From NCBI GenBank assembly GCA_045657225.1, contig JAZOSR010000035.1, positions 20,953 through 84,952 on the forward strand: a stretch of 64,000 nucleotides of DNA, given 5' to 3'. Below the pieces are notes generated by a model. The model saw nothing but the letters and a program-made list of their open reading frames with translations. It was not told where the DNA came from and did no database searches. The stretch is from Eubacteriales bacterium (GTDB lineage Bacteria; Bacillota; Clostridia; Oscillospirales; CAG-272). Both the position numbers and the translations under genes were made by a program. Positions 18,409 to 41,527 of this stretch are shown here, piece after piece; within the stretch, counting starts at the first letter, position 1; each line of letters opens with the position of its first letter.

Positions 18409-18435
18409 ATTTTTATAAATGCTTGGAGGTTTATT

Positions 18436-19176: not shown

Positions 19177-19180
19177 GACC

Positions 19181-19415: not shown

Positions 19416-19446
19416 AATTTTTCTCCTTTTATTTTTTAAAATAGGG

Positions 19447-19548
19447 TTGACAAATACCCGACTTTCGGATATACTATTAATGAGCTTGATTCTTCAAGCG
19501 CCGACTTGTGTCGGATAGATGGGGGAGAAAATCCCCCTTTTTTATTTT
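19447..19548 (+). ncRNA. candidate ~65-nt small RNA, antisense to the junction of two minus-strand genes
   Basis: Consensus-like promoter TTGACA (19447-19452)-17-TATACT (19470-19475); terminator GGGGGA-GAAAA-TCCCCC (19521-19537) plus T6ATTTT; internal CCGA..TCGG hairpin. Confidence 0.55.
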
Positions 19549-19997: not shown

Positions 19998-20078
19998 TCC
20001 TTTTGTTCAACTTGCTCTATCAGAGTGCCGTAGCTGCAGCGCGATCGCGCCGAGCTGCGGCACTCTTTGTTTTAAGAA

Positions 20079-22025
20079 TTATTCATTCTTATTTTCATTA
20101 TGTTTTCGGCTCTCTTTGTCCGCTCGTCTATCTCGTCGTCGCTGGCGTACTGCTGAATTTGTTGCACTGCACAAACGAATCACAGGAGGTAAAAAGAAAA
20201 TTGCCAAGATAATCAAAGCAATAATCAACATTAAAAAAACGATTTTCTTAATTGCTCCTTTTAATGCATCCAAAATATCCTGCCATAAGGAACTAGGTGT
20301 TTTTCCTACCCCCAAATCACCAACTATATCATATACAATACCATCACCAAAGCTATTTACGGTATTACTGACGGTAGGAATGACCACAGTGCCTCTTTTA
20401 CTTGTAAAAGCGATATGAGCAATAGATACGTTCAGCATCGCGCTTTTTTCGATGCTGTAACCAACGATAGGTCCTATATAAACCTGATCCATTTCCCATA
20501 CATCCTGAAGCAGTGTACAGCGGTAATCCGCAATTGCATAACGCAAAATTACAACCACCTCATCATTCATTGCAGCTTCTGCACAAACTTTAGAAAAGGC
20601 ATCAAGATCACAAGCATTGATAAAAAGGTTTTTGCTATATTCTGCATATTCACTTTGTAAAATTACACTGTAACTAACCGGGTTCTCAATGACCTCTATT
20701 TTTTTGCACTCTTTTAAGAAATCCTCCGTTAAATAAACGTCTTTATCGCCAAAAAGTCTTTGCCAAAAATTCGGTTCATATTTTCCGTGCGACATTTCAT
20801 AGGTTTCCAAATTGAACAAATCCTTATCGGTATAATCAATATCTAAGTTTCTCCTATACTCTGTATAGAGTGCGGATGCGTCAATACCCTTTGCAACCTG
20901 ATCCTTATAAAGCTTCTCCAACTTCTCTGAAGTAAAAGCTGTCATTTGACTCAAATCGCCCAAATCAAAATCCTCGGGTATGGCGTTGCTTTCGATTAAG
21001 TAAGCCAAACGTTCATAAATAAGAGCGTTTCTATAATCATCAAAAATGTTTTCCTTATCCGTATAAATCCAATCGGCATAATGATATCCTCCACTAAGAG
21101 GAATTTCTTCTTTTATAAATTTATCACCCGCCACCAAATCCATTACGTCAGTATCCTCTGTAATTTTTTGACCGTTTTGAATCATATTACGTGTAACATC
21201 ATCAAAAACGCCTTCACGTGTCACGATAATCGGTGTCAGTTTTACAGAATCATAGCTCGCGCGAATGGAAGAAATATATCCGTATCGCTCCAAAACACTT
21301 TTTTTTACCTTAAAATAAACCGAATGGATTTCATAATGGTCATATTCATCGGAAAGATTACCGTCAACGGTTTTGCCGGCGTTCGGGCTCACCCACGTAG
21401 TATCGTACAGCTTAATTGGCAAAACCTCGCCGTCGCGCACCTCGCAATTCAAGCTTTTATCGAAATCATATCCCGTAAAGATATACATACGGGATATCAC
21501 AAACTCCTGAATCTCGCCCTCTTTTGAAAGAAAAATGCCGGGAATATTATACACACGCTCGCCGGGATTTTCATGCAGGCTCCAAAGCTGCTTTACCACG
21601 TTGCTACCATACGACGTTACCTTATATTTCAAAAAACGGTTATCATTGCTTTTTGAAGCCAACTCCAGACCGTAAAAGTTATATGCCGCTACCACCATAT
21701 TCAAACCAAACTCTACGTGATCATCCGGAGAATTTTCAAATTTAATGCAACCGGGATTATACAAGTAAATGTAAAAGCCGTAATTTGAAGAATTGGTAAT
21801 GCTTTTAAAGCCTACTTCGGCTACAAAAAGCACCTCCACGTCCGTACGCGATTGATCCACGGGATATTTACTTTGATCAAACGGTTCTCCGTTTATTTTT
21901 AGTTGCGCAAGCTCTTTCATTACCACGCTATCATCCGTTGCCGCATCGACGGCGGCTGATGCGCTCATACAAAACACACTCAGCAACGATAAAAGCGCCA
22001 ACATAAGCGCCAATATTTTTTCCAT
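20079..22025 (-). CDS. secreted protein with N-terminal signal peptide and C-terminal TM anchor plus Arg/Lys tail (adsorption/spike-like topology)
   Basis: Start moved to MEKILALMLALLSLLSVFCMSASA (SD AAAGGAGAAGGG). C-terminus IVFLMLIIALIILAIFFLPPVI then RQRRRDRRADKESRKHNENKNE. Confidence 0.8.
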   Translation of the reverse strand: MEKILALMLALLSLLSVFCMSASAAVDAATDDSVVMKELAQLKINGEPFDQSKYPVDQSRTDVEVLFVAEVGFKSITNSSNYGFYIYLYNPGCIKFENSPDDHVEFGLNMVVAAYNFYGLELASKSNDNRFLKYKVTSYGSNVVKQLWSLHENPGERVYNIPGIFLSKEGEIQEFVISRMYIFTGYDFDKSLNCEVRDGEVLPIKLYDTTWVSPNAGKTVDGNLSDEYDHYEIHSVYFKVKKSVLERYGYISSIRASYDSVKLTPIIVTREGVFDDVTRNMIQNGQKITEDTDVMDLVAGDKFIKEEIPLSGGYHYADWIYTDKENIFDDYRNALIYERLAYLIESNAIPEDFDLGDLSQMTAFTSEKLEKLYKDQVAKGIDASALYTEYRRNLDIDYTDKDLFNLETYEMSHGKYEPNFWQRLFGDKDVYLTEDFLKECKKIEVIENPVSYSVILQSEYAEYSKNLFINACDLDAFSKVCAEAAMNDEVVVILRYAIADYRCTLLQDVWEMDQVYIGPIVGYSIEKSAMLNVSIAHIAFTSKRGTVVIPTVSNTVNSFGDGIVYDIVGDLGVGKTPSSLWQDILDALKGAIKKIVFLMLIIALIILAIFFLPPVIRLCSATNSAVRQRRRDRRADKESRKHNENKNE

Positions 22026-22082
22026 CCCTTCTCCTTTCCACAAGAAGGCCTGCGACCTATCGTCGCACGCCTTCCCCTGTTC

Positions 22083-22568
22083 TTATTCAATTACCGTAAA
22101 GTAAATAAATTTTAACGCCGCGCTATTGAAGCTACCCGTATATTCCATCAGCACAATCGCATATCTACCGGGCGTAAACGTCGGATCGCCACTACCTTCA
22201 TAATTGCTTTCCATATGATCAAACACATTGGTTGCATTGCCGGAACCTGCCCCAAGCAACGTTTCACTCTCGCCATCGCGCAAAGCGCCAACACGCCAAT
22301 AAGCCATACGGTCGGTGAACTCTCCATCACGGTAAACCATTACACGATCAAGCGGATTGAACGTTGTTACGGTAACCAAAATTGGCTCTCCCTCTTTATA
22401 CACATCCTTACTGGTATAAATTGAACGTGTGCGAGGATTGGCCGACACGTTGATGATTGTGCCCTCATCCTTTTGTACGTTTTGCTGCTGCAGCATTTTA
22501 CCTGCCACTAACGTGCCGCCAAACGACAACAGAAGCACAAGAACACACAAGACTATGCGCTTCCACAT
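22083..22568 (-). CDS. hypothetical signal-anchored/secreted 161-aa protein
   Basis: N-terminal hydrophobic segment IVLCVLVLLLSFGGTLVAG; beta-rich remainder. Confidence 0.75.
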   Translation of the reverse strand: MWKRIVLCVLVLLLSFGGTLVAGKMLQQQNVQKDEGTIINVSANPRTRSIYTSKDVYKEGEPILVTVTTFNPLDRVMVYRDGEFTDRMAYWRVGALRDGESETLLGAGSGNATNVFDHMESNYEGSGDPTFTPGRYAIVLMEYTGSFNSAALKFIYFTVIE

Positions 22569-22571
22569 AAT

Positions 22572-23135
22572 TTACTTCCAGAACTCTACCAAGTCCTCAA
22601 CGGAAGTACCTACGCAGAGAATGGGCTTAATTTTGACGTTATTCAGGCTGCAATCCTCAGCAAGAACAAGCTCAAGCTTCACGGTGATATCCTCGACCAG
22701 CTCGTCGCCGGGAATCACAACCGTAGAATTGTAACAGCTCTTTACCTCAGCGTCATTGTTGACGTTCGTCAGCTTCAAATACGCGGTGCCCTTAGAACCG
22801 TTCATGCCGGAATTAAAAACGTATGAAGTACCCTTTTTCAGCGTATACGTACCAATCGGAATGCTCGTTGCTTCCTCAGCCGTGCCGCTTACCTTGATGA
22901 TATTATCATCATCAATCGATACGGTCACACCGTTCTCTCCACCGGAAAGCACGCCGTCATCATCTGCAAAATTCATTGCCTGATACAGGTTGTCCTCGTT
23001 TACCTCGCGCAGCTGCCACTCGGTAGGATCCATGTTTTGGAAACCCTTGGAAAGATTACCGATCAGGATCAGACCGGTACAGGCAACCAGGACGATTGCC
23101 ACCATCGTTGCGATCATTTTTCTTTTTGCTCTCAT
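22572..23135 (-). CDS. hypothetical signal-anchored/secreted 187-aa protein
   Basis: SD AAGGAG; N-terminal MIATMVAIVLVACTGLILIG; beta-rich remainder. Confidence 0.75.
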   Translation of the reverse strand: MRAKRKMIATMVAIVLVACTGLILIGNLSKGFQNMDPTEWQLREVNEDNLYQAMNFADDDGVLSGGENGVTVSIDDDNIIKVSGTAEEATSIPIGTYTLKKGTSYVFNSGMNGSKGTAYLKLTNVNNDAEVKSCYNSTVVIPGDELVEDITVKLELVLAEDCSLNNVKIKPILCVGTSVEDLVEFWK

Positions 23136-23261
23136 TTTTTGTTTTCTCCTTTTTTGTTAAAATTTGATTTTTTATACGCCCATCGGGCTACTTGAAACGC
23201 CGGGAAAATACTTGAATTTTTCGCCCTGCTTGCGGGCGGTGCATCATGTTCACCTTCCTTC

Positions 23262-23293
23262 AATGAAAAATGGGTGGGGACGTATCCCCACCC
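23262..23293 (-). terminator. intrinsic terminator after the 101-aa gene
   Basis: Minus strand GGGTGGGGA-TACG-TCCCCACCC followed by ATTTTTCATT. Confidence 0.7.
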
Positions 23294-23372
23294 AAGTTCA
23301 ATGCGCTGTGGGGCAGCGCTATTGACAGATCAGATACACAACCGCCCCCACTGCAATTGTGCTTTTCGGATA

Positions 23373-23678
23373 TCACGCCGACTTTACGGGCTCGATCTTG
23401 ATATCCATCTTTGCCTTGCCGATCACACGAACCTCGCAAAGCGTGGCAACCGTACGGGTGCCGAACTGCTCGATCAGATACTCGAAATCACAGTAATCGC
23501 CGATCATGATATTGGAAATATCAAAACGGACGAAAACCGCTTCCACCTTCTGACCCTGCTCGCCGTCTGCCTGCTGCGCGGGCTTGTCCCAAAGCACGTG
23601 CAACGTGCGTGACATCTTTTGCTCGCCGTCCTTTTCGTAAGAACGCTCCTGCTTGCCTACAATAATCCCTTTTCTCAT
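23373..23678 (-). CDS. hypothetical 101-aa protein
   Basis: SD AAGAGGT; no family recognised (a single-stranded-DNA-binding role would fit the context but is unsupported). Confidence 0.7.
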   Translation of the reverse strand: MRKGIIVGKQERSYEKDGEQKMSRTLHVLWDKPAQQADGEQGQKVEAVFVRFDISNIMIGDYCDFEYLIEQFGTRTVATLCEVRVIGKAKMDIKIEPVKSA

Positions 23679-23718
23679 TTTCTTTACCTCTTTTCTTTAT
23701 GTATTTTTTTAGGGAATA

Positions 23719-25149
23719 CTAAAATGAATTATCGACACACTCAAAACAAGCAATTTTCGAACCATCACGAAAGTAAGCTCTAATCACAAAAATTTCCGTG
23801 CCGTTTATTACAGCGTCAGGCGCAATTAATTCACCATTCTCGTAACGAAATGTTGTACCATTTTCCAGAAGAACTTTATAGTAAAGCAAAACATCAAAAC
23901 GATTTCCGCCATTATCATAAATTTCATCAGTAAGCGTATTCATTACGACAAACCGTACCGCAACATTTAAACGCTGCCCAGGTATCATCACAGTAAACGG
24001 ACGATCAAGAAGCTCTTGATTAGATACTATATCTACAATTTGATGCTTGTATATTAATCGCTTGTTAAGTAACGATTCCAAGACACTTTCATCTGCATTT
24101 TCATAACCGTTAAAAATGCCTGCAGTAATATTTGCACTGACCATTAAAGCCCTATTGCATTCATCCAAAGCAATTTCACTATAGGAATTGCCACTTATTG
24201 TACTACCTGTATATAATGCCTTAGAACAAACATACGCATAAGAGGAAGCGTATGTCAAAAAGCTTTCTCCATACGGAACAAAAGCATATTGACGAACGGA
24301 TTTTTCCCCAAATTCCGCATAAGGAATTGCAACTATCACACGATTCGTATTTAACATTTTAATTCGTATCAAATAAGTGCGAAGCAACATTTCATTTAAG
24401 CCTTGTTCTTCACTGCAATTTAAGATCTCGTAATTACGACCTAATGTTAACTCTTCATTTTTAGAAAACTCCACAACCCAATCGACCACGGCAGTCATCG
24501 AACTTATTTTTTGCACCTCATCAATAGGAGCCAATAACATCTTAAACACACCACCTGCAGATACTACGTTTTGATAAAAAGTAGTATCTACATGCGCCAG
24601 AAATTTAATGCCGCCGTATTCTCCCATAGAAGCTTCGTTATAAGCAAATTCAGACGGCATCAAATAAAAGTCATTACTTGTATATGGCACAACATCCTTA
24701 TCCGCTGTAGGCGAAGAAATAGGATTAACCTTTATTTTACAGTTGGCTTCCATACCATCATAACGAAGTGTAACAATAGCCTCTCCGACTCCCACACCTT
24801 TTACGATAAAACCGTTTGCAACAGGACCGGATTCACCAATCGTTATATTTTGTTCAACAAAAACTATATCAGAGGCAGAAGATTCATATTCCCAAGGTAA
24901 TGTAACGTCCTTATGCGTCAGTTGAACGTCTATCAACCAGCTCTCTCCCAAAGTCAATTGCTTTTCCGTAGTTTGAATGACAAGCTTCGAATTAATGCTT
25001 ACCGAGCCCTGCAAATCCACAACAGAATTCTCCCGATGCATCATATATTCTTTAAGACTTTGAATCAAATTAACGGCTAAAATAATCAAAAAAACAAGTA
25101 AAACAGCCGTTACTAACAAAACAACAATTTTTTTTCGCTTTGCACTCAT
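23719..25149 (-). CDS. membrane-anchored protein with Ig-like (Big_2-type) domain
   Basis: Start set to MSAKRKKIVVLLVTAVLLVFLIILAV, whose ATG overlaps the Rep stop (ATGA). Segment DIVFVEQNITIGESGPVANGFIVKGVGVGEAIVTLRYDGMEANCKIKV resembles bacterial Ig-like group 2 domains. Confidence 0.8.
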   Translation of the reverse strand: MSAKRKKIVVLLVTAVLLVFLIILAVNLIQSLKEYMMHRENSVVDLQGSVSINSKLVIQTTEKQLTLGESWLIDVQLTHKDVTLPWEYESSASDIVFVEQNITIGESGPVANGFIVKGVGVGEAIVTLRYDGMEANCKIKVNPISSPTADKDVVPYTSNDFYLMPSEFAYNEASMGEYGGIKFLAHVDTTFYQNVVSAGGVFKMLLAPIDEVQKISSMTAVVDWVVEFSKNEELTLGRNYEILNCSEEQGLNEMLLRTYLIRIKMLNTNRVIVAIPYAEFGEKSVRQYAFVPYGESFLTYASSYAYVCSKALYTGSTISGNSYSEIALDECNRALMVSANITAGIFNGYENADESVLESLLNKRLIYKHQIVDIVSNQELLDRPFTVMIPGQRLNVAVRFVVMNTLTDEIYDNGGNRFDVLLYYKVLLENGTTFRYENGELIAPDAVINGTEIFVIRAYFRDGSKIACFECVDNSF

Positions 25150-26414
25150 TTTTTGTTTTTTCCTTTGCACTTGTAACAAATTCCAAAATTACTATCCGAT
25201 TCTACATGATCGAAAGCATGTATCGGCTTTACTTCCTGGCACTTTGCGCACAAAATTTGCTGCACACCGTTCCATATTTGAGGGCCCGGACGAGAGAACA
25301 CCGTAAACCACGGGGAGCGCTCCTCGTTTTGCTTCTGATCATTCAGCCATTCAAGCGCAATGTCCGTTTCGTTGCTCTCGCAATACTCGCGGATCATATC
25401 CGCATCAAGCTTGTCCTCATACTTGCCATGCTGGTGTATCAGATCTATGTATTTTGACGTCTGCTCGATCTGTCTTGCTTGTATCAGCTCGAAAAATTTT
25501 GTCGGGCCTAATATGGTAATTGCCGCATCAATGGCGTTACCGGCATTATTTTGCACAAAATTGACCATACGCTCCAGGTTATAGCCCTTGCCGGGCTTAC
25601 GGTACAAGGAAAGCTTTTCGGCATCCTGCAAAAACGCTTGCCAATACGGAAAACGGTGCCAAACCATTTTCTTGGGGTTGCCGCGCGCGGCGACCTCGTA
25701 ACCGTAATCAAGATAGTTTTCCATCACCCCACGGAACGCTTGTCCGAGCGTCAGCGGCGCCTCGATCTGTGTCACAGGGTCCTTGCCTATGAGGTACTTA
25801 ACAAACTCAAGCGCGCGATCGTCGCGCAGCTGCAGCTCGCAACGTACCCAGTGGGGAATGCTCTCCTTCACCTTTTCACGGTCCTCACGGCCGCGCATTT
25901 TGGAAATGCGCTCCTGCAGCTTATCGTAGATACGCACCAACAGCAACGACTTGGGTGATCCTATATCACACGACAAGCCGTTTGTGGATTCTATCACCTG
26001 GGCATAATCGGTTTTGGCTTTATATTTGTGGTTGCGCGGGCGCGTATCATCGCAAATGCGCTCAATATCCAAAACGCCGGTAAAATCATCGTAAGCAATA
26101 TCAAGACGTGTCAACTTCATAGCATTTTCGGGCTTCATTAAAGCCGCGAAAATCACGTCGTAGCTCTTATGGCTGGATTCACTTTCAAATGTGCGGCAGC
26201 CTTGACCCGAAAACTCACACCAAACGTTGTCTTGTGTGCCTCCATAATGTATGGAGATAGACCCATTATAGAAACGAGCACCATATCCGCGCACTCCTCG
26301 GTCGATCAATTGCCACCCTGAAGTAATCCCGATCAATTCCATCATATCCTCGGGGGTCATGGTCTTGCTCGTAATCGAAAGCCAGTCAATAAGAATACCG
26401 TTCTTATACTCCAT
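25146..26414 (-). CDS. rolling-circle replication initiator, Rep_trans family (PF02486-like), with C-terminal zinc ribbon
   Basis: 422 aa; IDWLSIT, RLDIAYD, IGSPKSLLLVRIYDK, VRCELQLRD motifs in the order typical of Rep_trans initiators/relaxases; C-terminal CAKC...CYKC. Confidence 0.9.
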   Translation of the reverse strand: MEYKNGILIDWLSITSKTMTPEDMMELIGITSGWQLIDRGVRGYGARFYNGSISIHYGGTQDNVWCEFSGQGCRTFESESSHKSYDVIFAALMKPENAMKLTRLDIAYDDFTGVLDIERICDDTRPRNHKYKAKTDYAQVIESTNGLSCDIGSPKSLLLVRIYDKLQERISKMRGREDREKVKESIPHWVRCELQLRDDRALEFVKYLIGKDPVTQIEAPLTLGQAFRGVMENYLDYGYEVAARGNPKKMVWHRFPYWQAFLQDAEKLSLYRKPGKGYNLERMVNFVQNNAGNAIDAAITILGPTKFFELIQARQIEQTSKYIDLIHQHGKYEDKLDADMIREYCESNETDIALEWLNDQKQNEERSPWFTVFSRPGPQIWNGVQQILCAKCQEVKPIHAFDHVESDSNFGICYKCKGKNKK

Positions 26415-26573
26415 TTTTCGCGGTACCCCCTACGACAGTGTTTTGAAGATCTGTACCCCCCTGTTAGCGGGGGGGCACCGCCCGCCCTCCGCCGCGCTTC
26501 GCGCGGCTTCGAGCGGGCATTTTTCGCCTCTCATTCGCTCCTTTGACTTTCTAAAATAGATTTTAACATTCAA

Positions 26574-31788: not shown

Positions 31789-32496
31789 TCAGCCGCGCAA
31801 AAGCTCGCTGACCGTTACAAACTCATATCCCGACCTCTGCAGCATCGGTATGATTTGCCGAAGCACCGCAGGGGTCGGACTGTTTTTACCCGTGAAATCG
31901 TGCATTAAAATGATCGAACCGTCGCAGATGTTTTTTTGAATGTTTGAAACGATTTTTGCCACGGGTGTTTTTGCCCAATCCCGCGTGTCAATGCTCCACA
32001 TCACGATCGTATAGCCCATTTCCTCGCAAAGCGCCTTGATCTCGTCTGTACAAATTCCCTCAGGAGGACGAAAAAGCCGTGGTGCATGCCCTGTTTTTCC
32101 CTCTAATGCTTTACTGCAAGCTAAAATATCCGCAATTAAAATATTTGCCTGTATATCCTTTGTGTGATAGTGATGGTAGGTGTGATTGCCGATTTCGTGC
32201 CCATCCTCTATTTCCCGTTTGATGAGATCTTCGTAGGTGTCTGCATTTATGCCAATTGTAAAAAAGGTCGCGTGCACACCGTATTTTTTTAAAATATCTA
32301 AGATCTGCGGCGTGTAACGCGGATGCGGTCCGTCATCAAAGGTAAGGGCAATTCTTTTTTTGCCGTCGCTTTTCGTGTGGTGAAATACAATTTCGGGTGT
32401 TGCGTTAACCGAGATCGTTGCGCTCATGAATAAAACAACCGCCAAAAGAAGCGTTATCAGGCGAAAAATCGCCTTTTTCCTCATCGCTCGATACAT
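31789..32496 (-). CDS. polysaccharide deacetylase family protein (NodB homology domain)
   Basis: RIALTFDDGPHP...ATFF, HTYHH, LFRPPEG motifs; N-terminal signal anchor. Confidence 0.88.
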   Translation of the reverse strand: MYRAMRKKAIFRLITLLLAVVLFMSATISVNATPEIVFHHTKSDGKKRIALTFDDGPHPRYTPQILDILKKYGVHATFFTIGINADTYEDLIKREIEDGHEIGNHTYHHYHTKDIQANILIADILACSKALEGKTGHAPRLFRPPEGICTDEIKALCEEMGYTIVMWSIDTRDWAKTPVAKIVSNIQKNICDGSIILMHDFTGKNSPTPAVLRQIIPMLQRSGYEFVTVSELLRG

Positions 32497-33266
32497 AATT
32501 CATCTAACGTACCGAAGCGATAGCCTTTTTCCTTTAATGCTTGGATAAGCTTCGGTAAAATTGCCGCGTTTGTTGCAGAAGTCGGGTGCAAAAGGATCAC
32601 TGCGCCGTTGTGCATACGTTCAAGTAACAAGGAGAGTGCTTTTTCCTCGCTTGGTTGCTTATTGTTATCCCAATCGGCATACGCAAGGCTCCAAAACACG
32701 GTGCGATAGCCCATGGAATCTACCTTTTGCAGTAACGTGCGCGAAAAGCTCCCCTCGGGAGGTCTGAAATAGGATGCAACCGATTTTCCCGTCGCGCTCA
32801 TCACCGCATCCTCTAAATCTCTTATTTCTTTTTCAATAACAGTGTCATCGACCATTGATAAATTGGTATGGCGCGCTGTATGGTTGCAAACAAGATGCCC
32901 TTCCGCTTGCATACGCACAACAAGGCTCGGGCATTCTGTCACAAAATGCTTTAACAGAAAAAACGCGGCAGGTGTTTTTGTATCACGAAGCGTGTTCAGT
33001 ATTTTCTCGGTGTTGCCGTTTTCGTAGCCTGCGTCAAAGGTCAGATATACCACCTTTTCTTCAGTCGTATCGCCGTGACGGTGGTCGATATAATAGCCCC
33101 CTAATTCCTCAACAAACAAAAGCTCCTCGGCGGCAAGGGCTTGCCTGCCGTTTTTTGTTTTTGTGGTATACCAGTGGTATTCTTTTTCCTTAATGGCGGT
33201 TACAGAAAAGGAAAATAAAGAAAATATAAGCATTCCCGCCAAAAAACAACTGCATATTTTTTTCAT
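32481..33266 (-). CDS. pdaA: delta-lactam-biosynthetic de-N-acetylase-like polysaccharide deacetylase
   Basis: VVYLTFDAGYENGNTEKIL...AAFFLL pattern matches the PdaA subgroup (TFD-x-GYENG). Confidence 0.8.
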   Translation of the reverse strand: MKKICSCFLAGMLIFSLFSFSVTAIKEKEYHWYTTKTKNGRQALAAEELLFVEELGGYYIDHRHGDTTEEKVVYLTFDAGYENGNTEKILNTLRDTKTPAAFFLLKHFVTECPSLVVRMQAEGHLVCNHTARHTNLSMVDDTVIEKEIRDLEDAVMSATGKSVASYFRPPEGSFSRTLLQKVDSMGYRTVFWSLAYADWDNNKQPSEEKALSLLLERMHNGAVILLHPTSATNAAILPKLIQALKEKGYRFGTLDELCIER

Positions 33267-33331
33267 TTGCGATCCTCCCCAATGTTTTACTGATATATAT
33301 TGTTATCTGAATCTCAATTTCTACACGATAT

Positions 33332-33376
33332 AAAAAATGGTGCTCCTGCATGAAGCAGGAGCACCGTTTTACTTTT
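33332..33376 (-). terminator. terminator (bidirectional geometry)
   Basis: GGTGCTCCTGC-ATGAA-GCAGGAGCACC flanked by A6 and T-runs. Confidence 0.8.
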
Positions 33377-33378
33377 TA

Positions 33379-34047
33379 TTAATCTTCAAAATCGAAATCA
33401 GCTAAATTTTTCTTTATGTACTGTATCGTTTTGGCTTCAAAATAGCGTTTGTTTTTTTGGAAGAATGGGACCACTCGTCCCTCTTGTCCTTCGACGTTTT
33501 GCTTCAGATCAAAGAGAAAATCCGCCATTTCCTTTTCACCGCCCATTTTAAGTGAGCGGCAGACAAATGCAACCGTACGCTCGTCTGCACTTAAGAACAA
33601 GGGTAAAATATCGTTTTCGTCCATGATCGATACATCGTGCAGCATCTTCAAAGAAATCAGCGGGACAAAGGCAGAATTCGCTTGTAATTGGATCACCAGC
33701 TCGCGCGGGATCCCACTCCAAAGCTCGATGGATTTTGGCGCAAATGAAGAAAGATAAAAGCTTAAGTTGTCATCGGCAAAATCATAGGTGAGCGCCTCGG
33801 CGGTTATCGAAATTTTGCGGCGACGATCGTACAAAAAGAAATTTGCTCTCGGTGCGTTTTTGCGATAAGAAAGGTAAAGCAGCACGATGCCCAAAACAAG
33901 CGACAGCGCTCCTAAAATTGTTAAAACAATGGAGAGCATTTTCTGGTCTTTTATGCTCGACGAGAAAATGAAAAGCACCAAAGCCAGCAAGGACAGAAAA
34001 AATGCTATAAATTTAGGGTTGTAAAAATCAAACTTCTTTTCTTTCAT
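33379..34047 (-). CDS. hypothetical membrane protein (two N-terminal TM helices)
   Basis: 222 aa; no family recognised. Confidence 0.65.
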   Translation of the reverse strand: MKEKKFDFYNPKFIAFFLSLLALVLFIFSSSIKDQKMLSIVLTILGALSLVLGIVLLYLSYRKNAPRANFFLYDRRRKISITAEALTYDFADDNLSFYLSSFAPKSIELWSGIPRELVIQLQANSAFVPLISLKMLHDVSIMDENDILPLFLSADERTVAFVCRSLKMGGEKEMADFLFDLKQNVEGQEGRVVPFFQKNKRYFEAKTIQYIKKNLADFDFED

Positions 34048-34061
34048 AATGCAACCTTTCT

Positions 34062-36455
34062 TTATATTTTTGTTAATTTAGCGTATGTTGACATCAATCT
34101 TTTCGTGCCCTTGGTGTCGAATGCAATTTCGTAAAGATAATCGGCGCCCATTTTTTGCACACTGATGATGAGTCCCTCGCCAAAGAGCATATGCCGCACT
34201 CGATCGCCTGGTGAAAGTACACAGGGTGTGGTCTTCGGTACCTTTTTTTCGATACCGCCAACGTTCACGTGCTCCTTTGCAGCCGCATATTTACTCTTCT
34301 CAAAATTATATTGCGCAACGCCAAATCTTTGCGTTGGAACGGCACGTTTTTCGCGCTCAATCAGATTGGCGGGAATTTCATCAAGAAAGCGCGAGGGTGG
34401 ATTTGCGCCCGTGCGTCCGTAAAGCAGGCGCGAGGCGGCATGGAGAATGTAAAGCTCATCCTTGGCGCGCGTGATCGCAACGTAAGCAAGACGGCGTTCC
34501 TCCTCAAGTGCTTCGGGACCCTCCATGATCGTTTGGGAACTTGGGAAAAGCCCTTCCTCAAAGCCCGGGAGAAAGACGCGGGGGAATTCAAGCCCCTTGG
34601 CACTGTGTATCGTCATCATTACAACGGCGTCGGCTGTATCGTCATAGCGGTCAACGTCGGCAACGAGCGCTGTAACCTCCAAAAATTCGGTCAGTGTCGG
34701 TGTGTCGGTGCTATCCTGATACTCCTTGACGTTGGAAATAAATTCGTTTAAGTTGTCAAGACGGTCGGCTTCCTCAGGACCCATATCAATGATCATTTGA
34801 CGGTAACCGCTTCTCTCAAGCACCTCGTTGACGAAATCGTCAAGCGACATCACATCGGCAAGCTCGGTTAAGGAGGAGATCAATCCCGCAAAATCAAGGA
34901 GCGACGCGGCAGAGCGCGAAAGCGCCATATAACGGTCGGCGTGACTGATGACGTCAAACATGGAAACGCCCTCCATTGCCGCAATTTCCTCAATAGCGGC
35001 AAGCGTGCGATCACCGATCTTGCGCCTTGGCTCATTGATAATGCGCAAAAGGCGTTCCTTGTCGCTGTGATTGTTAATGAGCTGTAAATATGCCACGATA
35101 TCGCGAATTTCCTTGCGGTCCGCAAAGCGAACGCCGCCGAGCATACGGTAAGGGATACCGCTTCTCGTAAAAGTGGTTTCAAGGGCGTTGGATTGCGCGT
35201 TGGTACGATAAAGCACGGCAAAATCACGGTAAGCGCATTCCCCTGCCGCCACCTTTTTACCGATAATATCAATGATCTTGCGCGCCTCGGCATTTTGGTG
35301 CTCGGGATTCAGCACCTGAATCTTTTCCCCCCCCTCGCGGTTGGTCCAAAGCGTTTTTCCCTTTCTGTTTTCGTTGTGGGAGATCACGGCATTGGCGGCA
35401 TCAAGAATCGGCTGTGTGGAACGGTAATTTTGCTCAAGGCGAATCACCTTGGCATCGTTAAATCGACGGTCAAACTGCAAAATATTGGCGATCGTCGCGC
35501 CGCGGAAGCGGTAAATGCTTTGGTCATCATCACCCACTACCATCAAATTGCGATAGCCTCCCGCAAGAAGCGCTGTTAGGCGAAACTGCGCTTCGTTTGT
35601 GTCCTGATACTCGTCAACCGATACGTAACGAAACTGACTTTGGTAGGTGTTGCGCACCTCCTCGTTGTTTTCAAGGAGCTTGACGGTATAAAAGATAATA
35701 TCGTCAAAATCAAGCGCGTTTGAGCCCTCCATGCGCTTTTGATACGCCTCATAGATCTTTGCGATCTGCTTCATTTTATAGTCGTTTCCAAACTCCAATA
35801 AAAATTCATCGGGCGTGATCAGCTTTTCCTTGGCGTCACTGATGTGACGAATGACGGATTTTATGTTCAGCGTCTTTTCGTCAATATTTTGCTCCTTCAT
35901 GACTGCCCCGATGGCTTTTTTGGTATCGTCGGTATCGTAAATGGTAAAGCCCTCACGAAGCCCTGCCGCATCGCTGAAGCGGCGCAGAATACGCATACAG
36001 ATCGAGTGGAAGGTGCCCGCCCAAATATTCGAGGCAAGATCGGGATCCTCGGGGAATGCCGAGGCAAGGCGCGCCTTGATCTCCCCTGCCGCTTTATTGG
36101 TAAAGGTAATGGCAAGCACACGCCACGGCGGGCAAGGATTATTGGTAAATTCAGAAAGCAGCCCTTCAAGCTCCTCGTCGGTAAGCGGCTCGTTCAGTGC
36201 TCTTTCCAATGCCTCAACGTGTCTTTCGTCAAGGTCAAACGGTACGTAATCGCTATGGTAAGCGTTTCCAAAACGGATCATGTACGCAATGCGGCGCACC
36301 AAAACGGTGGTTTTTCCGCTTCCCGCCCCCGCTAAAACAAGCAAGGGTGAATTGATATGATAAACCGCTGCTCTTTGCATGCTGTTAAGGGACCGATAAT
36401 ATCGGTCAAACAGCGCGCGCTTAACGGTAAGATAACGTGTTTGCAGATCTAACAT
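34062..36455 (-). CDS. pcrA: ATP-dependent DNA helicase PcrA (UvrD/Rep family)
   Basis: LNSMQRAAV...LVLAGAGSGKTTVL Walker A, DEYQDTN Walker B, full SF1 motif set. Start placed at ATG 36455 (SD GGAGG 6 nt upstream) rather than the upstream TTG. Confidence 0.95.
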   Translation of the reverse strand: MLDLQTRYLTVKRALFDRYYRSLNSMQRAAVYHINSPLLVLAGAGSGKTTVLVRRIAYMIRFGNAYHSDYVPFDLDERHVEALERALNEPLTDEELEGLLSEFTNNPCPPWRVLAITFTNKAAGEIKARLASAFPEDPDLASNIWAGTFHSICMRILRRFSDAAGLREGFTIYDTDDTKKAIGAVMKEQNIDEKTLNIKSVIRHISDAKEKLITPDEFLLEFGNDYKMKQIAKIYEAYQKRMEGSNALDFDDIIFYTVKLLENNEEVRNTYQSQFRYVSVDEYQDTNEAQFRLTALLAGGYRNLMVVGDDDQSIYRFRGATIANILQFDRRFNDAKVIRLEQNYRSTQPILDAANAVISHNENRKGKTLWTNREGGEKIQVLNPEHQNAEARKIIDIIGKKVAAGECAYRDFAVLYRTNAQSNALETTFTRSGIPYRMLGGVRFADRKEIRDIVAYLQLINNHSDKERLLRIINEPRRKIGDRTLAAIEEIAAMEGVSMFDVISHADRYMALSRSAASLLDFAGLISSLTELADVMSLDDFVNEVLERSGYRQMIIDMGPEEADRLDNLNEFISNVKEYQDSTDTPTLTEFLEVTALVADVDRYDDTADAVVMMTIHSAKGLEFPRVFLPGFEEGLFPSSQTIMEGPEALEEERRLAYVAITRAKDELYILHAASRLLYGRTGANPPSRFLDEIPANLIEREKRAVPTQRFGVAQYNFEKSKYAAAKEHVNVGGIEKKVPKTTPCVLSPGDRVRHMLFGEGLIISVQKMGADYLYEIAFDTKGTKRLMSTYAKLTKI

Positions 36456-36465
36456 GCTGGCCTCC

Positions 36466-36498
36466 AAAAGAAAAAACGGGGGACAAAATCAGTCCCCC
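36466..36498 (-). terminator. Rho-independent terminator after the Asn/Gln-rich micro-ORF
   Basis: Minus strand GGGGGAC-TGATTTT-GTCCCCC followed by GTTTTTTCTTTT. Confidence 0.8.
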
Positions 36499-36511
36499 GC
36501 CGCCGATTGGA

Positions 36512-36682
36512 TTAATAATCCTTCTTTTGCTGGTTCTGATTTTTGTTCTGATTGTTGTTTTGATTATTGTTCTGATTTTGGTTGTTCTGGTTGTTCTGGT
36601 TGTTTTGGTTGTTATTCTGATTATTGTTCTGATTGTTGTTCTGGTTCTTGTTGTAGTTTTGGTTCTGATTTTGGTTCTGCAT
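36512..36682 (-). CDS. 56-aa Asn/Gln-rich micro-protein (31 N + 17 Q)
   Basis: Hand translation of the minus strand: MQNQNQNQNYNKNQNNNQNNNQNNNQNNQNNQNNQNQNNNQNNNQNKNQNQQKKDY; SD AAGGGAG 8 nt upstream; own terminator; same strand as all neighbours. Below the ORF-track size cutoff. Confidence 0.6.
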   Translation of the reverse strand: MQNQNQNQNYNKNQNNNQNNNQNNNQNNQNNQNNQNQNNNQNNNQNKNQNQQKKDY

Positions 36683-36762
36683 GATACACACTCCCTTTTA
36701 GCATTGCCCTGCCTTTTGCTGTGCAAGGCTGATGTTAGTATGCGTCAAGCAAAATAAAGTAT

Positions 36763-38151
36763 TCATTCAAAGCGATATCTTTCCTTGATCTTGCCAAAAA
36801 TAAGGAATAGGGTGTAACCGAAATAAACGGCGAAAAGCAAGGCGCAAAGAAAATCTGCACACCAGAAAAATTCAAGAATGCGGAATGCCTTGGTGTTGGG
36901 CCATTCCTTAATATAATCATAAAGGAACGAGAAAAGCCCGCTGATAAAGCCAAGGATGAAGCACTTGATAAGCTGCCAATCAAATTCCTCAAGGACACGC
37001 TTTCTGTTACGCAGCTCAAATTCCGCAGGCTCGTGCTCAAAAACATAGCCTGTTTTGTTTTTGATGATCTCTCGCAAGAAGAAAAGCAAGAGAATGAGAA
37101 ACGCAAGAAACGCCAAAAATTCAAGCAAGGAAAAGATCCACATCGTGGTATATGCCTTAAAAACAACTTGATCCTTGCCAATGTTTTCCGCATAATGCTC
37201 GCTTGAAAATTGATAGGAAAAATAACTTGATACGGTTGCAATCACGGTAAAGATAATAGCCGAAAGCCAAAGCCCCCATTTTTTAAGGAGCGAATCCTTG
37301 GCGGCAAGCAAAATAGCAAGCAGTAAAATAATTCCCGCGACGGTGTCTGAAATGATGTTTTGAAAATCGATGTAAAAATCGACAAGAAAAAGCGCACCGA
37401 TAAGCATGAGAATAAATACTGCGCGGTAAAAGGCCTTTACTCTGATGCCGGGGTGGCGCTCCATAAAGGAGCTATACGCTTCTCCGAGCGACGTCAGGAA
37501 ACGTTCCTCCCCTTTTACCTTGGCGAAATAATAGAGTATGCTTACCAACCACACAATACCGAGCACGAGCGCGGGCAAAAATGCCAAAATGCGCATCACG
37601 CCGATATATTGGTATAGATTGATCATTCCCGTTTCGGCAGAGCTGCTGTTCATCAGTGCCGCAAATTCGGGTAGGAGCAAAACGATCTCGCGCACGATAA
37701 AGAAGATGACCGAGAAGCGGCGCATTCTCTCGCAGATCGAATATTTCTTATCCCAACGCAGATAAAGCGCTTCGCAGTCATACGTGCCCGCCAGCATATC
37801 CATACCGTCAAAAAAAGCATTTATGGCAACTACGGCAAAATACGTGCGCACAGTAGCGCTTAAAAACGAAATGATAAGTAAGAGCAGCTCCTGCTCTCCC
37901 TTTGCTCCCATGCCGAAAACAAACAAAAGAAGTAAGTTTTTGACAAGATCTGCAAGCAAGAAGTAAAAAAATGCTTTACTTGCCTCTTGCATATGGCGAT
38001 CAATGCGAGAAAATGGGATAAGACCGAGTATCACGAAAATCGCACCGATAAAATCGGGCAAAACGTCAATCGCGGCAAAATAAGGATTAAAGAAAAATAC
38101 AAAGCCGATGCAAATCAGAAATATACGCAACGGACGAATCTGCATTGCCAT
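36763..38151 (-). CDS. hypothetical polytopic membrane protein (462 aa)
   Basis: More than 10 hydrophobic segments; no family recognised. Confidence 0.7.
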   Translation of the reverse strand: MAMQIRPLRIFLICIGFVFFFNPYFAAIDVLPDFIGAIFVILGLIPFSRIDRHMQEASKAFFYFLLADLVKNLLLLFVFGMGAKGEQELLLLIISFLSATVRTYFAVVAINAFFDGMDMLAGTYDCEALYLRWDKKYSICERMRRFSVIFFIVREIVLLLPEFAALMNSSSAETGMINLYQYIGVMRILAFLPALVLGIVWLVSILYYFAKVKGEERFLTSLGEAYSSFMERHPGIRVKAFYRAVFILMLIGALFLVDFYIDFQNIISDTVAGIILLLAILLAAKDSLLKKWGLWLSAIIFTVIATVSSYFSYQFSSEHYAENIGKDQVVFKAYTTMWIFSLLEFLAFLAFLILLLFFLREIIKNKTGYVFEHEPAEFELRNRKRVLEEFDWQLIKCFILGFISGLFSFLYDYIKEWPNTKAFRILEFFWCADFLCALLFAVYFGYTLFLIFGKIKERYRFE

Positions 38152-38154
38152 GAT

Positions 38155-38760
38155 TTATTTTCCTTTCTTTGTTTTTTTGTCTTGTATGGGCGCTGTGATC
38201 TCGCTGCCCTCGGGCAAAATATAACGGTAGCATCTGAAAAAGAGCCAGAGGTTTAAGAATGCGCAGAAAAAGCGCAAGAGCGAGATGGGAAGCGCAAAGG
38301 CTGTCTGATGCGTTTCGATAAACGAGATCGGCAGCTTGGCAATCAAATAAAGCAGATGATATATGCCGACAAAGACCAAATTTCTCATAGAAATGCTTTG
38401 AATTTCAACAAGTCCAAGGTCGCCCGCAAGCATCATAAGACCGCCCAAAAGTACCGCATGGAACAATAGTGTATAAACGAAATAGCACCACTCAACAACG
38501 GTATAAAACGTGCCGACAAGGAACGACATCTCGGGCAATACGTTAAGCGTCATTAAGCCGTACAAGGCAAAATAACAGCCAAACAACACGCCGAGTGCCG
38601 ACACGAAAAGAGATTTCAAGAAAAAGGAGTGGTATGGCGCAAGACGGTAGCACGCAAACGCTACAATGCCAAAGCCGATCGGCATTACCAGTGCAAACGG
38701 CGCAAAGATCGTCATGATATTGATCATAAAATAGCCGATCAGCAATAATCCAAAGCCCAT
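38155..38760 (-). CDS. hypothetical polytopic membrane protein (201 aa)
   Basis: Six or so hydrophobic segments; begins 19 nt after the secA stop. Confidence 0.7.
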   Translation of the reverse strand: MGFGLLLIGYFMINIMTIFAPFALVMPIGFGIVAFACYRLAPYHSFFLKSLFVSALGVLFGCYFALYGLMTLNVLPEMSFLVGTFYTVVEWCYFVYTLLFHAVLLGGLMMLAGDLGLVEIQSISMRNLVFVGIYHLLYLIAKLPISFIETHQTAFALPISLLRFFCAFLNLWLFFRCYRYILPEGSEITAPIQDKKTKKGK

Positions 38761-38779
38761 GTCCTACTCCTTTTTATTC

Positions 38780-41527
38780 TCAAGAATTGTTCTGCGCGGC
38801 ACCGCAGCACTTTTTGTATTTTTTACCGCTGCCGCAGGGGCAAAGATCGTTTCTGCCGACCTTTTCTGCCTTGCGCACCACAACTGTCTTTTTTCTTGCG
38901 GCTCCGTCTTGTCCCTCAAAGCTTTCCTGCAAGGGCTTGGCGAGCTGCACGCGGCGAACGGGCTGCGGGCGCGGAATCACGGTCAGCACGTGGCGAACGG
39001 TTTCGTCACGGATCTCGGCGATCATCTCATCAAACATATCTGCGCCCTGCAGACGGTATTCGTTGACGGGATTGCGTTGTGCATAAGAGTGCAGACCAAT
39101 GCTTCCCTTCAAATCGTCCATGGCATCGATATGATCCATCCAATGACGGTCTACCGATTGCAACAAAATCGAGCGCTCGACCTCGCGGAAGGTCTCCTCG
39201 CCAAAGAGCTTTACCTTTTCCTCGTAGAGCGCCTCGGCGCGTGCGGTAAGGTGCTCGACCAGCGCATCTTGCTTGTTCTTCTCGGCAAGCACTGCCTCAA
39301 GCTCATCGTCGGTGTTGATCAAATAAGGCTTATAAACAGTGGCAAGACCTGCAATGTTACGGGTCTCCTCACTGCCATCGCCCCAATAAAGCGCCACGTT
39401 GTCGGCGATCGTCGAACGGATCATCGAAAGGATCGTTGCGGAAATATCCTCGCCGTTTAGCACGTCAAGACGTTGCTTATAAATGAGATTGCGTTGCTGG
39501 TTCATTACGTCGTCGTAGGTGAGGACGTTCTTACGGCGCTTAAAGTTGTTATCCTCAATGCGCTTTTGTGCCATTTCAATACGGCTTGACAAAAGTCCCA
39601 TTGAAAGCGGCTGATCGTCAGGCAGTCCCAAGCGGTCGGCAAAGCCCTGCATGCGGTCACCGCCAAACAAACGCATCAGATCATCCTCAAGCGAGAGGAA
39701 AAAGCGAGATTCGCCCGGGTCACCCTGACGGCCTGCACGACCGCGCAGCTGATTGTCAATACGGCGGCTCTCGTGACGCTCGGTACCGAGAATATAAAGT
39801 CCCCCTGCCGCGCGCACGCGCTCTGCCTCGGGTGGAATTTCTTTTTTATACTTTTCGTGAAGATCACGGAAGAGCTCGCATGCGGCACGTACCTCATCAT
39901 CCTCAATGTCGGTCGTGCCCGTTGCCATCGCGATCATTTCCTCGGTATATTCGAGCTTGCGCATCTCATTTTTGGCTAGGAACTCGGCATTGCCACCCAG
40001 CATAATGTCCGTACCGCGTCCTGCCATGTTTGTGGAGATCGTTACGGCACCGAATTTGCCTGCCTGCGCCACAATCTCCGCCTCGCGCTCATGGTGCTTG
40101 GCATTGAGGACGTTGTGCTTGATGCCGCGCTTCTTGAGCTTTGCGGAAAGCTCCTCGGACTTGTCTACACTGATCGTACCGACAAGCACGGGCTGACCCT
40201 TTTCGTGACATTCCACGATCTGGGCAATGATCGCATCATATTTCCCCTTGATATTCTTATAAACGTTATCGTTGTGATCAATGCGGATCATCGGCTTATT
40301 GGTGGGTACCTCCACCACGTCAAGCGCGTAGATCTCACGGAATTCCATATCCTCGGTGAGTGCCGTGCCCGTCATGCCCGAAAGCTTTTGATACATACGG
40401 AAATAATTCTGGAAGGTGATCGTCGCGAGCGTGCGGTTTTCCTTTTGCACCTCCACACCCTCTTTTGCCTCAATTGCTTGGTGCAAGCCGTTTGAGTAAC
40501 GGCGTCCCGGCATAATACGACCCGTGAAGGAATCCACGATCATCACGCCGTTTTCATTCACAACGTAATCAACGTCGCGCTTCATCACGCCCCATGCGTG
40601 AATGGCCTGATTGATGTGATGCGCGATCTCGGAATTGGCGGGATCGCCAAAGTTTTCAATACCGAAGAATTCCTCCGCGCGCGCGGCTCCGCGAGGGGTG
40701 ATGACCGCATTGCGTGCCTTCTCATCTACTACGTAATCGGCTTCGACCGTATCAAGCTCCTCTTTACTGTCAATTTCTTTTTTGACGAGCTTGGTCATGG
40801 TGCGCACCAGCGTATTCGCACGGTCGTAAAGATCGGTCGACTTTTGCCCTGCGCCCGAGATAATAAGCGGCGTGCGCGCCTCGTCAATGAGGATCGAGTC
40901 CACCTCGTCAACGATGGCGAAGGTGTGACCGCGCTGTACCATATCGGCCTTATACACCACCATGTTATCACGCAGATAATCAAATCCAAATTCATTGTTG
41001 GTGCCGTAGGTAATATCCGCATTGTATGCCGCCTGCTTCTCCGCGGGCGTAAGACCGTGAACCACAAGACCCGTGGAAAGACCCATAAAGGCATAGACTC
41101 TGCCCATTTCCTCACTGTCGCGGCGTGCAAGATAATCGTTGACGGTGACAACGTGCACACCATTCCCCGTCAGCGCGTTGAGGTAAGCGGGCATAGTCGC
41201 CACAAGGGTCTTACCCTCGCCCGTTTTCATTTCGGCAATACGACCTTGGTGCAAAATAATACCGCCCAGCAGTTGTACAAAGAAGGGGCGCTTGCCAAGC
41301 ACACGCTCGTCTGCCTCGCGTACTGCGGCAAATGCGTCGCACAAAATATCATCAAGTGTTTCACCCGCCGCAAGGCGCGCCTTCAGCTGCGGTGTGACAC
41401 CCGCAAGCTCCTCGTTTGACATTGCGGCATATTTGGGCGCAAGCGCCTCGATCTCGTTAGCGATGCGACGCAGCTTTTTAATTTGACGGTCACTGTATGA
41501 ACCGAACATTTTACGAAACAATCCCAT
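38780..41527 (-). CDS. secA: preprotein translocase ATPase SecA
   Basis: 915 aa; MKTGEGKT Walker A, DEVDSILIDEARTPLIISG, C-terminal zinc motif CPCGSGKKYKKCCG. Confidence 0.98.
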   Translation of the reverse strand: MGLFRKMFGSYSDRQIKKLRRIANEIEALAPKYAAMSNEELAGVTPQLKARLAAGETLDDILCDAFAAVREADERVLGKRPFFVQLLGGIILHQGRIAEMKTGEGKTLVATMPAYLNALTGNGVHVVTVNDYLARRDSEEMGRVYAFMGLSTGLVVHGLTPAEKQAAYNADITYGTNNEFGFDYLRDNMVVYKADMVQRGHTFAIVDEVDSILIDEARTPLIISGAGQKSTDLYDRANTLVRTMTKLVKKEIDSKEELDTVEADYVVDEKARNAVITPRGAARAEEFFGIENFGDPANSEIAHHINQAIHAWGVMKRDVDYVVNENGVMIVDSFTGRIMPGRRYSNGLHQAIEAKEGVEVQKENRTLATITFQNYFRMYQKLSGMTGTALTEDMEFREIYALDVVEVPTNKPMIRIDHNDNVYKNIKGKYDAIIAQIVECHEKGQPVLVGTISVDKSEELSAKLKKRGIKHNVLNAKHHEREAEIVAQAGKFGAVTISTNMAGRGTDIMLGGNAEFLAKNEMRKLEYTEEMIAMATGTTDIEDDEVRAACELFRDLHEKYKKEIPPEAERVRAAGGLYILGTERHESRRIDNQLRGRAGRQGDPGESRFFLSLEDDLMRLFGGDRMQGFADRLGLPDDQPLSMGLLSSRIEMAQKRIEDNNFKRRKNVLTYDDVMNQQRNLIYKQRLDVLNGEDISATILSMIRSTIADNVALYWGDGSEETRNIAGLATVYKPYLINTDDELEAVLAEKNKQDALVEHLTARAEALYEEKVKLFGEETFREVERSILLQSVDRHWMDHIDAMDDLKGSIGLHSYAQRNPVNEYRLQGADMFDEMIAEIRDETVRHVLTVIPRPQPVRRVQLAKPLQESFEGQDGAARKKTVVVRKAEKVGRNDLCPCGSGKKYKKCCGAAQNNS

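Follow-up and report, generated by a model that had tools for sequence, protein, structure and literature searches.

Between the gene for a polytopic membrane protein and pcrA, a 64,000-nucleotide stretch of DNA from an Eubacteriales bacterium (contig JAZOSR010000035.1 of assembly GCA_045657225.1; the whole stretch analysed is hereafter referred to as the window) carries a small open reading frame (ORF) of 56 codons, nearly all of which specify asparagine (Asn, N) or glutamine (Gln, Q). This locus raises the question of whether so monotonous a sequence is a gene at all and, if it is, when and for what purpose its product would be made. An earlier inspection of the DNA letters, hereafter referred to as the sequence-only reading, had taken the N/Q ORF for a stand-alone gene encoding a prion-like, condensate-forming, spore-associated or nitrogen-storage-type peptide. 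We found that the ORF is almost certainly a real coding gene, with orthologues at the same chromosomal position that share a sigma-G-type promoter motif. The interpretation that we favour, and to which we would give about an even chance, is that the gene would encode a forespore-expressed peptide resembling the small, acid-soluble proteins of spores (SASPs) and would be analogous in function to the gamma-type SASP.

The product of the ORF (MQNQNQNQNYNKNQNNNQNNNQNNNQNNQNNQNNQNQNNNQNNNQNKNQNQQKKDY), read from ATG to TAA on the minus strand, contains 31 N and 17 Q, or 86% of its residues, in agreement with the hand translation made previously; the rest consists of four Lys, two Tyr, one Asp and one Met. 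Its isoelectric point (pI) is 9.7 and its net charge is +3. The DNA had been described as an imperfect repeat, and Tandem Repeats Finder did report imperfect repeats with periods of 9, 12 and 18 nt, each a multiple of three. Chance cannot account for the N/Q richness of the ORF. When all six frames of the window were scanned for stretches of 20 aa containing ≥60% N+Q, nothing matched besides the N/Q ORF; in 80 pcrA loci of other genomes, scanned likewise with a threshold of ≥55% N+Q, there were three short stretches, corresponding to the orthologue in L001 (L numbers designate loci, Table 1) and to two unrelated glutamine-rich sequences. AlphaFold2, run on the single 56-aa sequence, yielded a predicted local distance difference test score of 58.7 and zero secondary structure, which is weak evidence but is compatible with disorder. 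We take the products of this gene and of the orthologues described below to be tiny, basic and probably intrinsically disordered proteins, composed nearly entirely of Asn and Gln, with some Lys, Ser and Arg.

Orthologues were sought in species-representative genomes, in metagenome contigs and, with contig retrieval, in a protein collection, with PcrA as the synteny anchor. Twelve complete copies were obtained, that of the window included, all on the same strand between a membrane-protein gene (~460–500 aa) and pcrA, in hosts whose PcrA is ~62–85% identical to that of the window (this identity refers to the N-terminal 135 aa only for L081, L085, L086 and L090, and to the full length for the other loci). 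An additional, truncated copy was found in L091. The membrane-protein gene is kept 5' of the small ORF in L161, L162, L164, L165, L167, L168 and L086. The 12 members are 22–63 aa long, with 59–86% N+Q, a Lys content of 2–14%, a pI of 9.7–11.3 and a net charge of +2 to +5. Most begin with MQN(Q/Y/R)NQNQN and their C-terminal tails are short and non-repetitive (QQKKDY, NNNQEY, QKAQSENRQ, GRGQVDNKNQ and others). Hydrophobic residues beyond Met1 are scarce, with one to three Ala or Val residues in half of the members, and Tyr is the sole aromatic residue. The family is lineage-specific and belongs to uncultured, endospore-forming gut and rumen Clostridia, represented by metagenome-assembled genomes (MAGs) of the 'Ruminococcaceae'/Oscillospirales type. 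In L168 (positions 2100–2400), the membrane-protein gene is without its usual stop and, as called, extends over the first 35 nt of the N/Q ORF in another frame; as a result, the N/Q ORF, of 43 aa, was not called there.

Comparison of these loci indicates that the N/Q frame is the translated one. It has an ATG and a 4–6-nt match to the Shine–Dalgarno (SD) sequence in all 12 loci, whereas in the remaining five frames, two of them sense and three antisense, the start or the SD is wanting in nearly all of the loci, as the sequence-only reading had maintained for the window. The shared N-terminus, MQN(Q/Y)NQNQN, is encoded by differing synonymous codons between loci. Both synonymous codons are in use for Asn (AAC 177, AAT 82) and for Gln (CAG 130, CAA 61), and the second codon position is an A in 511 of 559 codons. 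In five close pairs, we counted 42 synonymous versus 22 non-synonymous codon differences, a count made on repeat alignments that are biased towards amino-acid identity. The length differences within these pairs all correspond to whole codons and, more generally, length variation among the orthologues is always in the N/Q frame, as had been expected if the sequence were coding. Together with the SD recognised previously at the site given in Table 1, these 12 syntenic orthologues, the restriction of ATG and SD to the N/Q frame and the synonymous excess bear out the proposal of a stand-alone translated gene. The related suggestion that the gene would escape both gene callers and similarity searches was only half right: homology searches do fail (see below), but orthologues of 37–63 aa have already been called as genes in JGI, ENA and Logan assemblies. 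Two other ORFs at this position were considered and rejected, an antisense ORF (36437–36757, plus strand, 106 aa), which is hydrophobic and contains V, L and I only, and a sense ORF in the +1 frame (36421–36726, minus strand, 101 aa), which is rich in R, T, K and I. Both are without an SD and neither is conserved as an ORF, and they exist because AAY/CAR codons generate them as mirror and shift by-products.

The probable timing of expression is suggested by a candidate promoter in the 80-nt gap 5' of the ORF, 53 nt before the ATG. It consists of T-GAATA as the −35 element (36764–36760), which overlaps the TGA stop of the upstream membrane-protein gene, a 17-nt spacer and CATACTA as the −10 element (36742–36736). 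The sigma-G consensus of Bacillus subtilis is GHATR-17/18-CATXHTA, and the candidate promoter matches it fully. On both strands of the 64-kb window (128 kb), this consensus had three matches, with 1.0–1.5 expected; when a TG-anchored motif with a relaxed −10 box was used, the N/Q promoter was the sole match in the window (0.36 expected). Furthermore, the upstream region of each of the 12 loci contains a single G-N-A-T-A/17–18/x-A-x-A-C-T-R motif, 31–76 nt before the ATG, for which our calculation gave an expectation of ~0.01 per 110-nt region. The overall shape of the motif in the 12 loci is tG(A/C)ATA-17/18-CAtACTA, with a −10 box of CAAACTA in L081 and L167. Information content is high in the two boxes only, and is partly forced by the search pattern; at the unforced positions, −35 position 5 is an A and −10 position 5 is a C in 12/12 loci, and in 10/12 the G has a T before it. 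Between the ~7 independent lineages among the 12 loci, neither spacers nor flanks can be aligned.

Mapped sigma-F/G promoters of C. difficile (e.g. those of CD1290, CD2465 and CD1789) have TGAATA or TGTATA at −35 and xAxACTA at −10, and the forespore consensus of this species has been stated to be very similar to that of B. subtilis. Another of the window matches to the sigma-G consensus, GAATG-17-CATAATA (11027–10999, minus strand), was the only other one in a suitable context and provided a positive control, consisting of a single gene: it lies just 5' of a 60-aa Cys-rich ORF (10787–10969, minus strand) that has a strong SD and was assigned to DUF1540 by Pfam (E = 1.2e-11). The exosporium DUF1540 protein of C. 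difficile, CdeA/CD2375, has a mapped sigma-G promoter, and DUF1540 co-occurs with endospore formation (PMC3789822, PMC7677010, PMC2955703). An alpha/beta-type SASP gene was also sought in the window as a promoter control and none was found. Sigma-G is preferred over sigma-E/K because of the invariant ACT(A/G) end of the −10 box, the G-initiated −35 element and the 17–18-nt spacer, and we regard forespore-specific expression of the N/Q gene as probable from these promoter sequences. The conservation of the sigma-G-type promoter is also the reason why, among the options raised by the sequence-only reading, a spore-associated or nitrogen-storage-type peptide is favoured.

On its 3' side, within 10 nt, the ORF has the strong terminator of its own that had been attributed to it. 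The stem-loop (36501–36475, minus strand) has 10 pairs, seven of them G-C, and is continued by a T tract (TTTTCTTTT) that abuts the SD of pcrA. For 11 of the loci, the folds included a GC-rich hairpin and T run 3' of the ORF; the fold of the twelfth, L161, was truncated, and there both are visible in the sequence. Across loci, we counted <10 nt to ~30 nt between the stop codon and the hairpin. The terminator is followed by a sigma-A-type pcrA promoter (e.g. TTGATT-17-TATAAT) in L165, L167 and L168, and the small gene is therefore a self-contained cassette in these loci. In the window, L161, L081 and L001, the T tract of the terminator is in contact with the pcrA SD, so pcrA needs terminator read-through there; pcrA presumably encodes an essential helicase, and more distant relatives carry a sigma-A-type promoter at that site instead. 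A sigma-A-like promoter is located 5' of secA, and a search of the minus strand from secA to pcrA in the window gave no sigma-70-type promoter. The N/Q gene is monocistronic. The sequence-only reading had placed it at the tail of the secA operon, and all neighbouring genes from 31789 to 41527 do share its strand, but a simple operon tail is at odds with its own promoter-like motif and with the separate pcrA promoter in three lineages. The pcrA product, which is 100% identical to the 797-aa entry P0001 of the protein collection, is not part of the function of the small gene and served here as a synteny anchor.

Database searches did not relate the N/Q protein to any described family. A phmmer-based search of a 5.8-billion-protein set with the 56-aa query returned 3757 word candidates, none of them at E ≤ 0.001, because composition correction removes the score. 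Exact look-up with the 56- and 59-aa forms of the window protein, with eight orthologues and with the adjacent membrane protein retrieved no record. Neither the 56-aa protein nor the L001 orthologue matched a Pfam family at E ≤ 1, SASP_gamma (PF04259) and PF00269 included, and NCBIfam gave none for three N/Q members. The E[IVL][AS]xE[LFMIV]G motif of alpha/beta-type SASPs was absent throughout the window, and nothing equivalent was found in the literature on Asn/Gln-rich spore proteins and QNQNQNQN-type strings. The N/Q family is previously undescribed and compositionally extreme, and is unrelated to all known families of small hydrophilic forespore proteins. Eleven viral-contig matches to ATG(CARAAY)4 were rejected, as all were unrelated, being N-terminal QN tracts of larger proteins or belonging to giant-virus bins. 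Five IMG/VR contigs (L169, L171, L173, L178 and L179; ~30% GC) encode a Cys/His-rich viral protein of ~250–270 aa with an N-terminal MQ(NQ)n tract; the length of this tract varies in frame between contigs (n from ~4 to 10), and the protein is unrelated to the clostridial N/Q family.

SASP genes are sigma-G-dependent, and the gamma-type SASP, which is thought to be an amino-acid reservoir for outgrowth, is absent from all clostridial genomes examined. In the scenario that we propose, RNA polymerase with sigma-G, and possibly also with sigma-F, would initiate at tGAATA-17/18-CATACTA late in sporulation; the strong SD would lead to heavy translation and the terminator would restrict the transcript to the small gene. 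The N/Q peptide would be made in the forespore and stored in the core, and on germination it would be degraded to Asn and Gln, that is, to amino acids and amide nitrogen for outgrowth. The polar, hydrogen-bonding and weakly cationic chain may also aid the formation of a gel- or glass-like dehydrated core, or coat nucleic acids. From the monocistronic gene, the strong SD, the terminator, the sigma-G-type promoter and the tiny, hydrophilic, unfolded product, we infer that sigma-G transcribes the gene and that the peptide is found in spores, stored and later degraded, as for a gamma-type SASP; a storage or SASP-like role, considered by itself, is a tentative proposal suggested by these sequence features, which we hold with somewhat less than even confidence.

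The gamma-type SASP of the Bacillales, SspE (PF04259), is about one third N+Q and, like the N/Q family, is small, very hydrophilic, of low complexity and Gln/Asn-rich, with a patchy, lineage-restricted distribution. Its gene is likewise monocistronic, with a strong SD, a terminator and a sigma-G-type promoter (the last known from the literature). The N/Q proteins differ in their much higher N+Q content (59–86%), shorter length (22–63 aa), basic character and lack of the repeated cleavage motif of the germination protease (GPR); they occur in Clostridia, where gamma-type SASPs are not known, and have no detectable similarity to SspE. The minor SASPs of Bacillus (SspG–SspP, Tlp and CsgA) and the putative SASPs CD1290 and CD3220.1 of C. 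difficile are also short, hydrophilic, sigma-G-dependent and lineage-specific forespore proteins, and at the mapped CD1290 promoter the −10 box is AAAACTA, resembling the CAAACTA of L081 and L167; however, none of them is homologous to the N/Q family or consists of an N/Q repeat close to homopolymeric. In C. difficile, the sporulation-specific protein GerG (CD0311) shares with the N/Q family its Asn-rich low-complexity repeats. The GerG repeats vary in number between strains, gel spontaneously in vitro and are dispensable for function. Unlike the N/Q protein, GerG is dependent on sigma-E (mother cell) and is much larger, with ~30% Asn, 15% Met, 11% Pro and functional non-repeat regions, and no sequence relationship exists between the two.

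Two further systems invite comparison. Q/N-rich prion-like domains, such as those of yeast Sup35, with its GNNQQNY segment, and C. botulinum Rho, have the same extreme Gln/Asn bias and predicted disorder, but they form part of larger proteins, whereas the N/Q peptide is a whole protein, short and cationic. When the family was examined for prion-domain features, the N/Q bias and the lack of a predicted fold were present, but the length (mostly <60 aa) and the net positive charge argue against aggregation. Cyanophycin is a non-ribosomal Asp-Arg nitrogen reserve, and the N/Q peptide would resemble it as a nitrogen-dense polymer reserve, with two N atoms in each Asn or Gln residue and an N:C ratio of 0.4–0.5 according to our arithmetic. 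Unlike cyanophycin, the N/Q peptide is ribosomal and tiny and has no synthetase or cyanophycinase genes nearby, so that the analogy would be functional only.

In addition to the bias in the codon count mentioned above, several observations weigh against a forespore-expressed SASP-like peptide. Neither the gamma-type nor the alpha/beta-type SASPs resemble the N/Q protein in sequence. The GPR cleavage motif is of the E-[FIY]-[AG]-S-E type, and the 12 sequences contain no F, no I and no E-x-A/G-S-E string. Some close relatives (L163 and L003–L005) are without the gene, and in them the membrane gene directly abuts pcrA; it is therefore a dispensable, lineage-specific insertion. The promoter was assigned by its similarity to a consensus, and sigma-E/K −10 boxes also start with CATA, so that a mother-cell sigma factor is conceivable, if less likely. 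In seven loci, moreover, the pdaA-like gene had only weak forespore-like boxes upstream, with no convincing sigma-G-like motif. Vegetative transcripts must cross the small ORF because pcrA in the window is without room for a promoter of its own, and transcripts starting at the secA promoter may therefore lead to translation of the peptide in growing cells too. Finally, all the hosts are uncultured MAGs.

Other explanations of the locus were weighed against this proposal. One holds that the region is untranslated, a slippage-prone A/C-rich microsatellite or an unstructured RNA element (e.g. a protein-binding sponge), given that repeat units of 6, 9 and 12 nt would stay in frame through slippage alone, that an AAY/CAR repeat cannot hold stops in the N/Q frame and that the exact proteins are absent from the large protein collection. 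We find this scarcely credible, since a properly spaced SD and an ATG are conserved in the N/Q frame only, the conserved N-terminus is spelled with codons that differ between loci and synonymous changes are in excess; moreover, the C-terminal tails are non-repetitive, the stop always precedes the terminator, and amino-acid composition is held while DNA identity between lineages is low. If the ORF is translated, the act of translation rather than its product could matter, with ribosome transit of 48 Asn/Gln codons (tRNA charging) setting the terminator and hence pcrA expression. The strong terminator within 10 nt of the ORF, its T tract next to the pcrA SD and the dependence of the window pcrA on read-through would all suit such a regulatory leader peptide, which we nevertheless judge highly improbable: pcrA in L165, L167 and L168 has its own sigma-A promoter after the terminator, the hairpin lies at variable distances from the stop (<10 to ~30 nt), no conserved antiterminator pairing was evident in the folds of the loci, and Rfam at E ≤ 1 across 30–43 kb gave nothing at the N/Q locus. 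Nor is there a physiological link of Asn/Gln supply to a DNA helicase, and in relatives that are without the ORF pcrA comes immediately after the membrane gene. The separate promoters in three lineages, the variable hairpin distance and the lack of an alternative fold or an Rfam match led us to reject the attenuator model.

A protein with a function of its own could still be expressed elsewhere or at another time. Under sigma-E or sigma-K, it would be a mother-cell protein, a low-complexity component of the coat or exosporium, or an assembly gel protein analogous to GerG, which is sigma-E-controlled, Asn-rich and gel-forming and has a variable repeat number; mother-cell promoters also share a CATA-type −10 and an ATA in the −35 region. 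The sigma-E/K −10 consensus is CATACA-T / CATA---TA. The −10 box of the N/Q gene, by contrast, ends with ACT(A/G) in every lineage, its −35 element starts with an invariant G (usually TG) and its 17–18-nt spacer is as for sigma-G; in addition, the protein has no similarity to GerG, with its GMPNNMSNNMNSNM repeats in a much larger protein containing Met and Pro, and this explanation is distinctly improbable. A peptide whose main activity is in growing cells, as a prion-like, amyloid, condensate-forming or otherwise aggregating protein made from a secA-to-pcrA transcript and with an irrelevant promoter-like motif, is also unlikely, but has more in its favour. Its composition is that of a Q/N-rich prion-like domain, the Asn-rich repeats of GerG gel in vitro, a sigma-A-like promoter is available 5' of secA, and the operon transcript can reach pcrA only through the ORF in the window, L161, L081 and L001. 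However, conservation of the motif in 12/12 loci while the surrounding intergenic DNA diverges is hard to explain without a function, and the terminator and the pcrA promoter in three lineages mark an independent unit. Furthermore, most members are below typical prion-domain length, and a Lys content of 2–14% with a net positive charge disfavours aggregation.

The window encodes a SpoIIID-like regulator (2884–3156, plus strand; TIGR02844, E = 2e-28, below the trusted cut-off) and, just downstream of pcrA, tandem PdaA-like and PdaB-like polysaccharide deacetylases (31789–33266, minus strand), and the organism therefore has sporulation machinery. Upstream, between secA and pcrA, the polytopic membrane protein of 462 aa listed in Table 1 is preceded by a second one (38155–38760, minus strand, 201 aa); the order of both genes is kept clade-wide, with or without the N/Q gene, and Pfam and NCBIfam gave zero families for the two proteins. 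The region from ~11800 to 26500 is probably an integrated mobile element, with genes for an rve-integrase/HTH_38 protein (11842–12900, minus strand) and a Rep_trans rolling-circle replication initiator (25146–26414, minus strand), together with large ORFs without a Pfam family (15012–17177, plus strand; 20079–22043 and 23719–25179, minus strand).

Table 1. Features of the N/Q locus in the window and the 12 complete copies of the N/Q gene, with the identity of each host PcrA to that of the window.
Feature	Window coordinates	Strand	Length	PcrA identity	Basis or remark
Coding sequence of the Asn/Gln-rich protein	36512..36682	−	56 aa		Translation, syntenic orthologues, synonymous excess
Shine–Dalgarno sequence AAGGGAG	36691..36697	−			8 nt 5' of the ATG
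Candidate forespore (sigma-G-type) promoter	36736..36765	−			Only TG-anchored match in the window; in all 12 loci
Intrinsic terminator, GGCGGGGGAC-loop-GTCCCCCGTT + T tract	36465..36501	−			Minimum free energy (MFE) hairpin, −25.1 kcal/mol
pcrA, UvrD-family helicase	34062..36455	−	797 aa		ATG at 36455, SD GGAGG at 36461–36465
Polytopic membrane protein	36763..38151	−	462 aa		Upstream neighbour, synteny anchor
Window copy			56 aa	Reference	
L161 copy			45 aa	85%	
L081 copy			40 aa	77%	N-terminal 135 aa of PcrA
L001 copy			22 aa	70%	
L164 copy			47 aa	74%	
L162 copy			59 aa	72%	
L165 copy			63 aa	70%	L166 identical
L167 copy			37 aa	68%	
L168 copy			43 aa	66%	
L085 copy			50 aa	65%	N-terminal 135 aa of PcrA
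L086 copy			48 aa	62%	N-terminal 135 aa of PcrA
L090 copy			61 aa	63%	N-terminal 135 aa of PcrA

The N/Q protein is among the most Asn/Gln-rich stand-alone bacterial proteins seen, which makes it a clean natural system for studying the production of a polar-zipper-type polypeptide, its maintenance in a soluble or deliberately gelled state and its later removal. It also exemplifies how a family of conserved genes can escape homology searches through composition filters; a scan for sigma-G promoters combined with synteny is able to recover such genes. A more far-reaching idea, which we consider a long shot, is that some clostridial endospore formers fill the gamma-type SASP niche with a near-pure poly(Asn/Gln) peptide, which would be both a ribosomal nitrogen-reserve polymer and a reversible polar-zipper gel or glass of the core, aiding dormancy and being dissolved or degraded at germination. 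If the forespore SASP-like interpretation is true, it would mean that one or more gut and rumen lineages have evolved an unrelated, compositionally extreme substitute for the storage SASP, and the textbook view of Clostridia as lacking gamma-type (storage) SASPs would be partly overturned.

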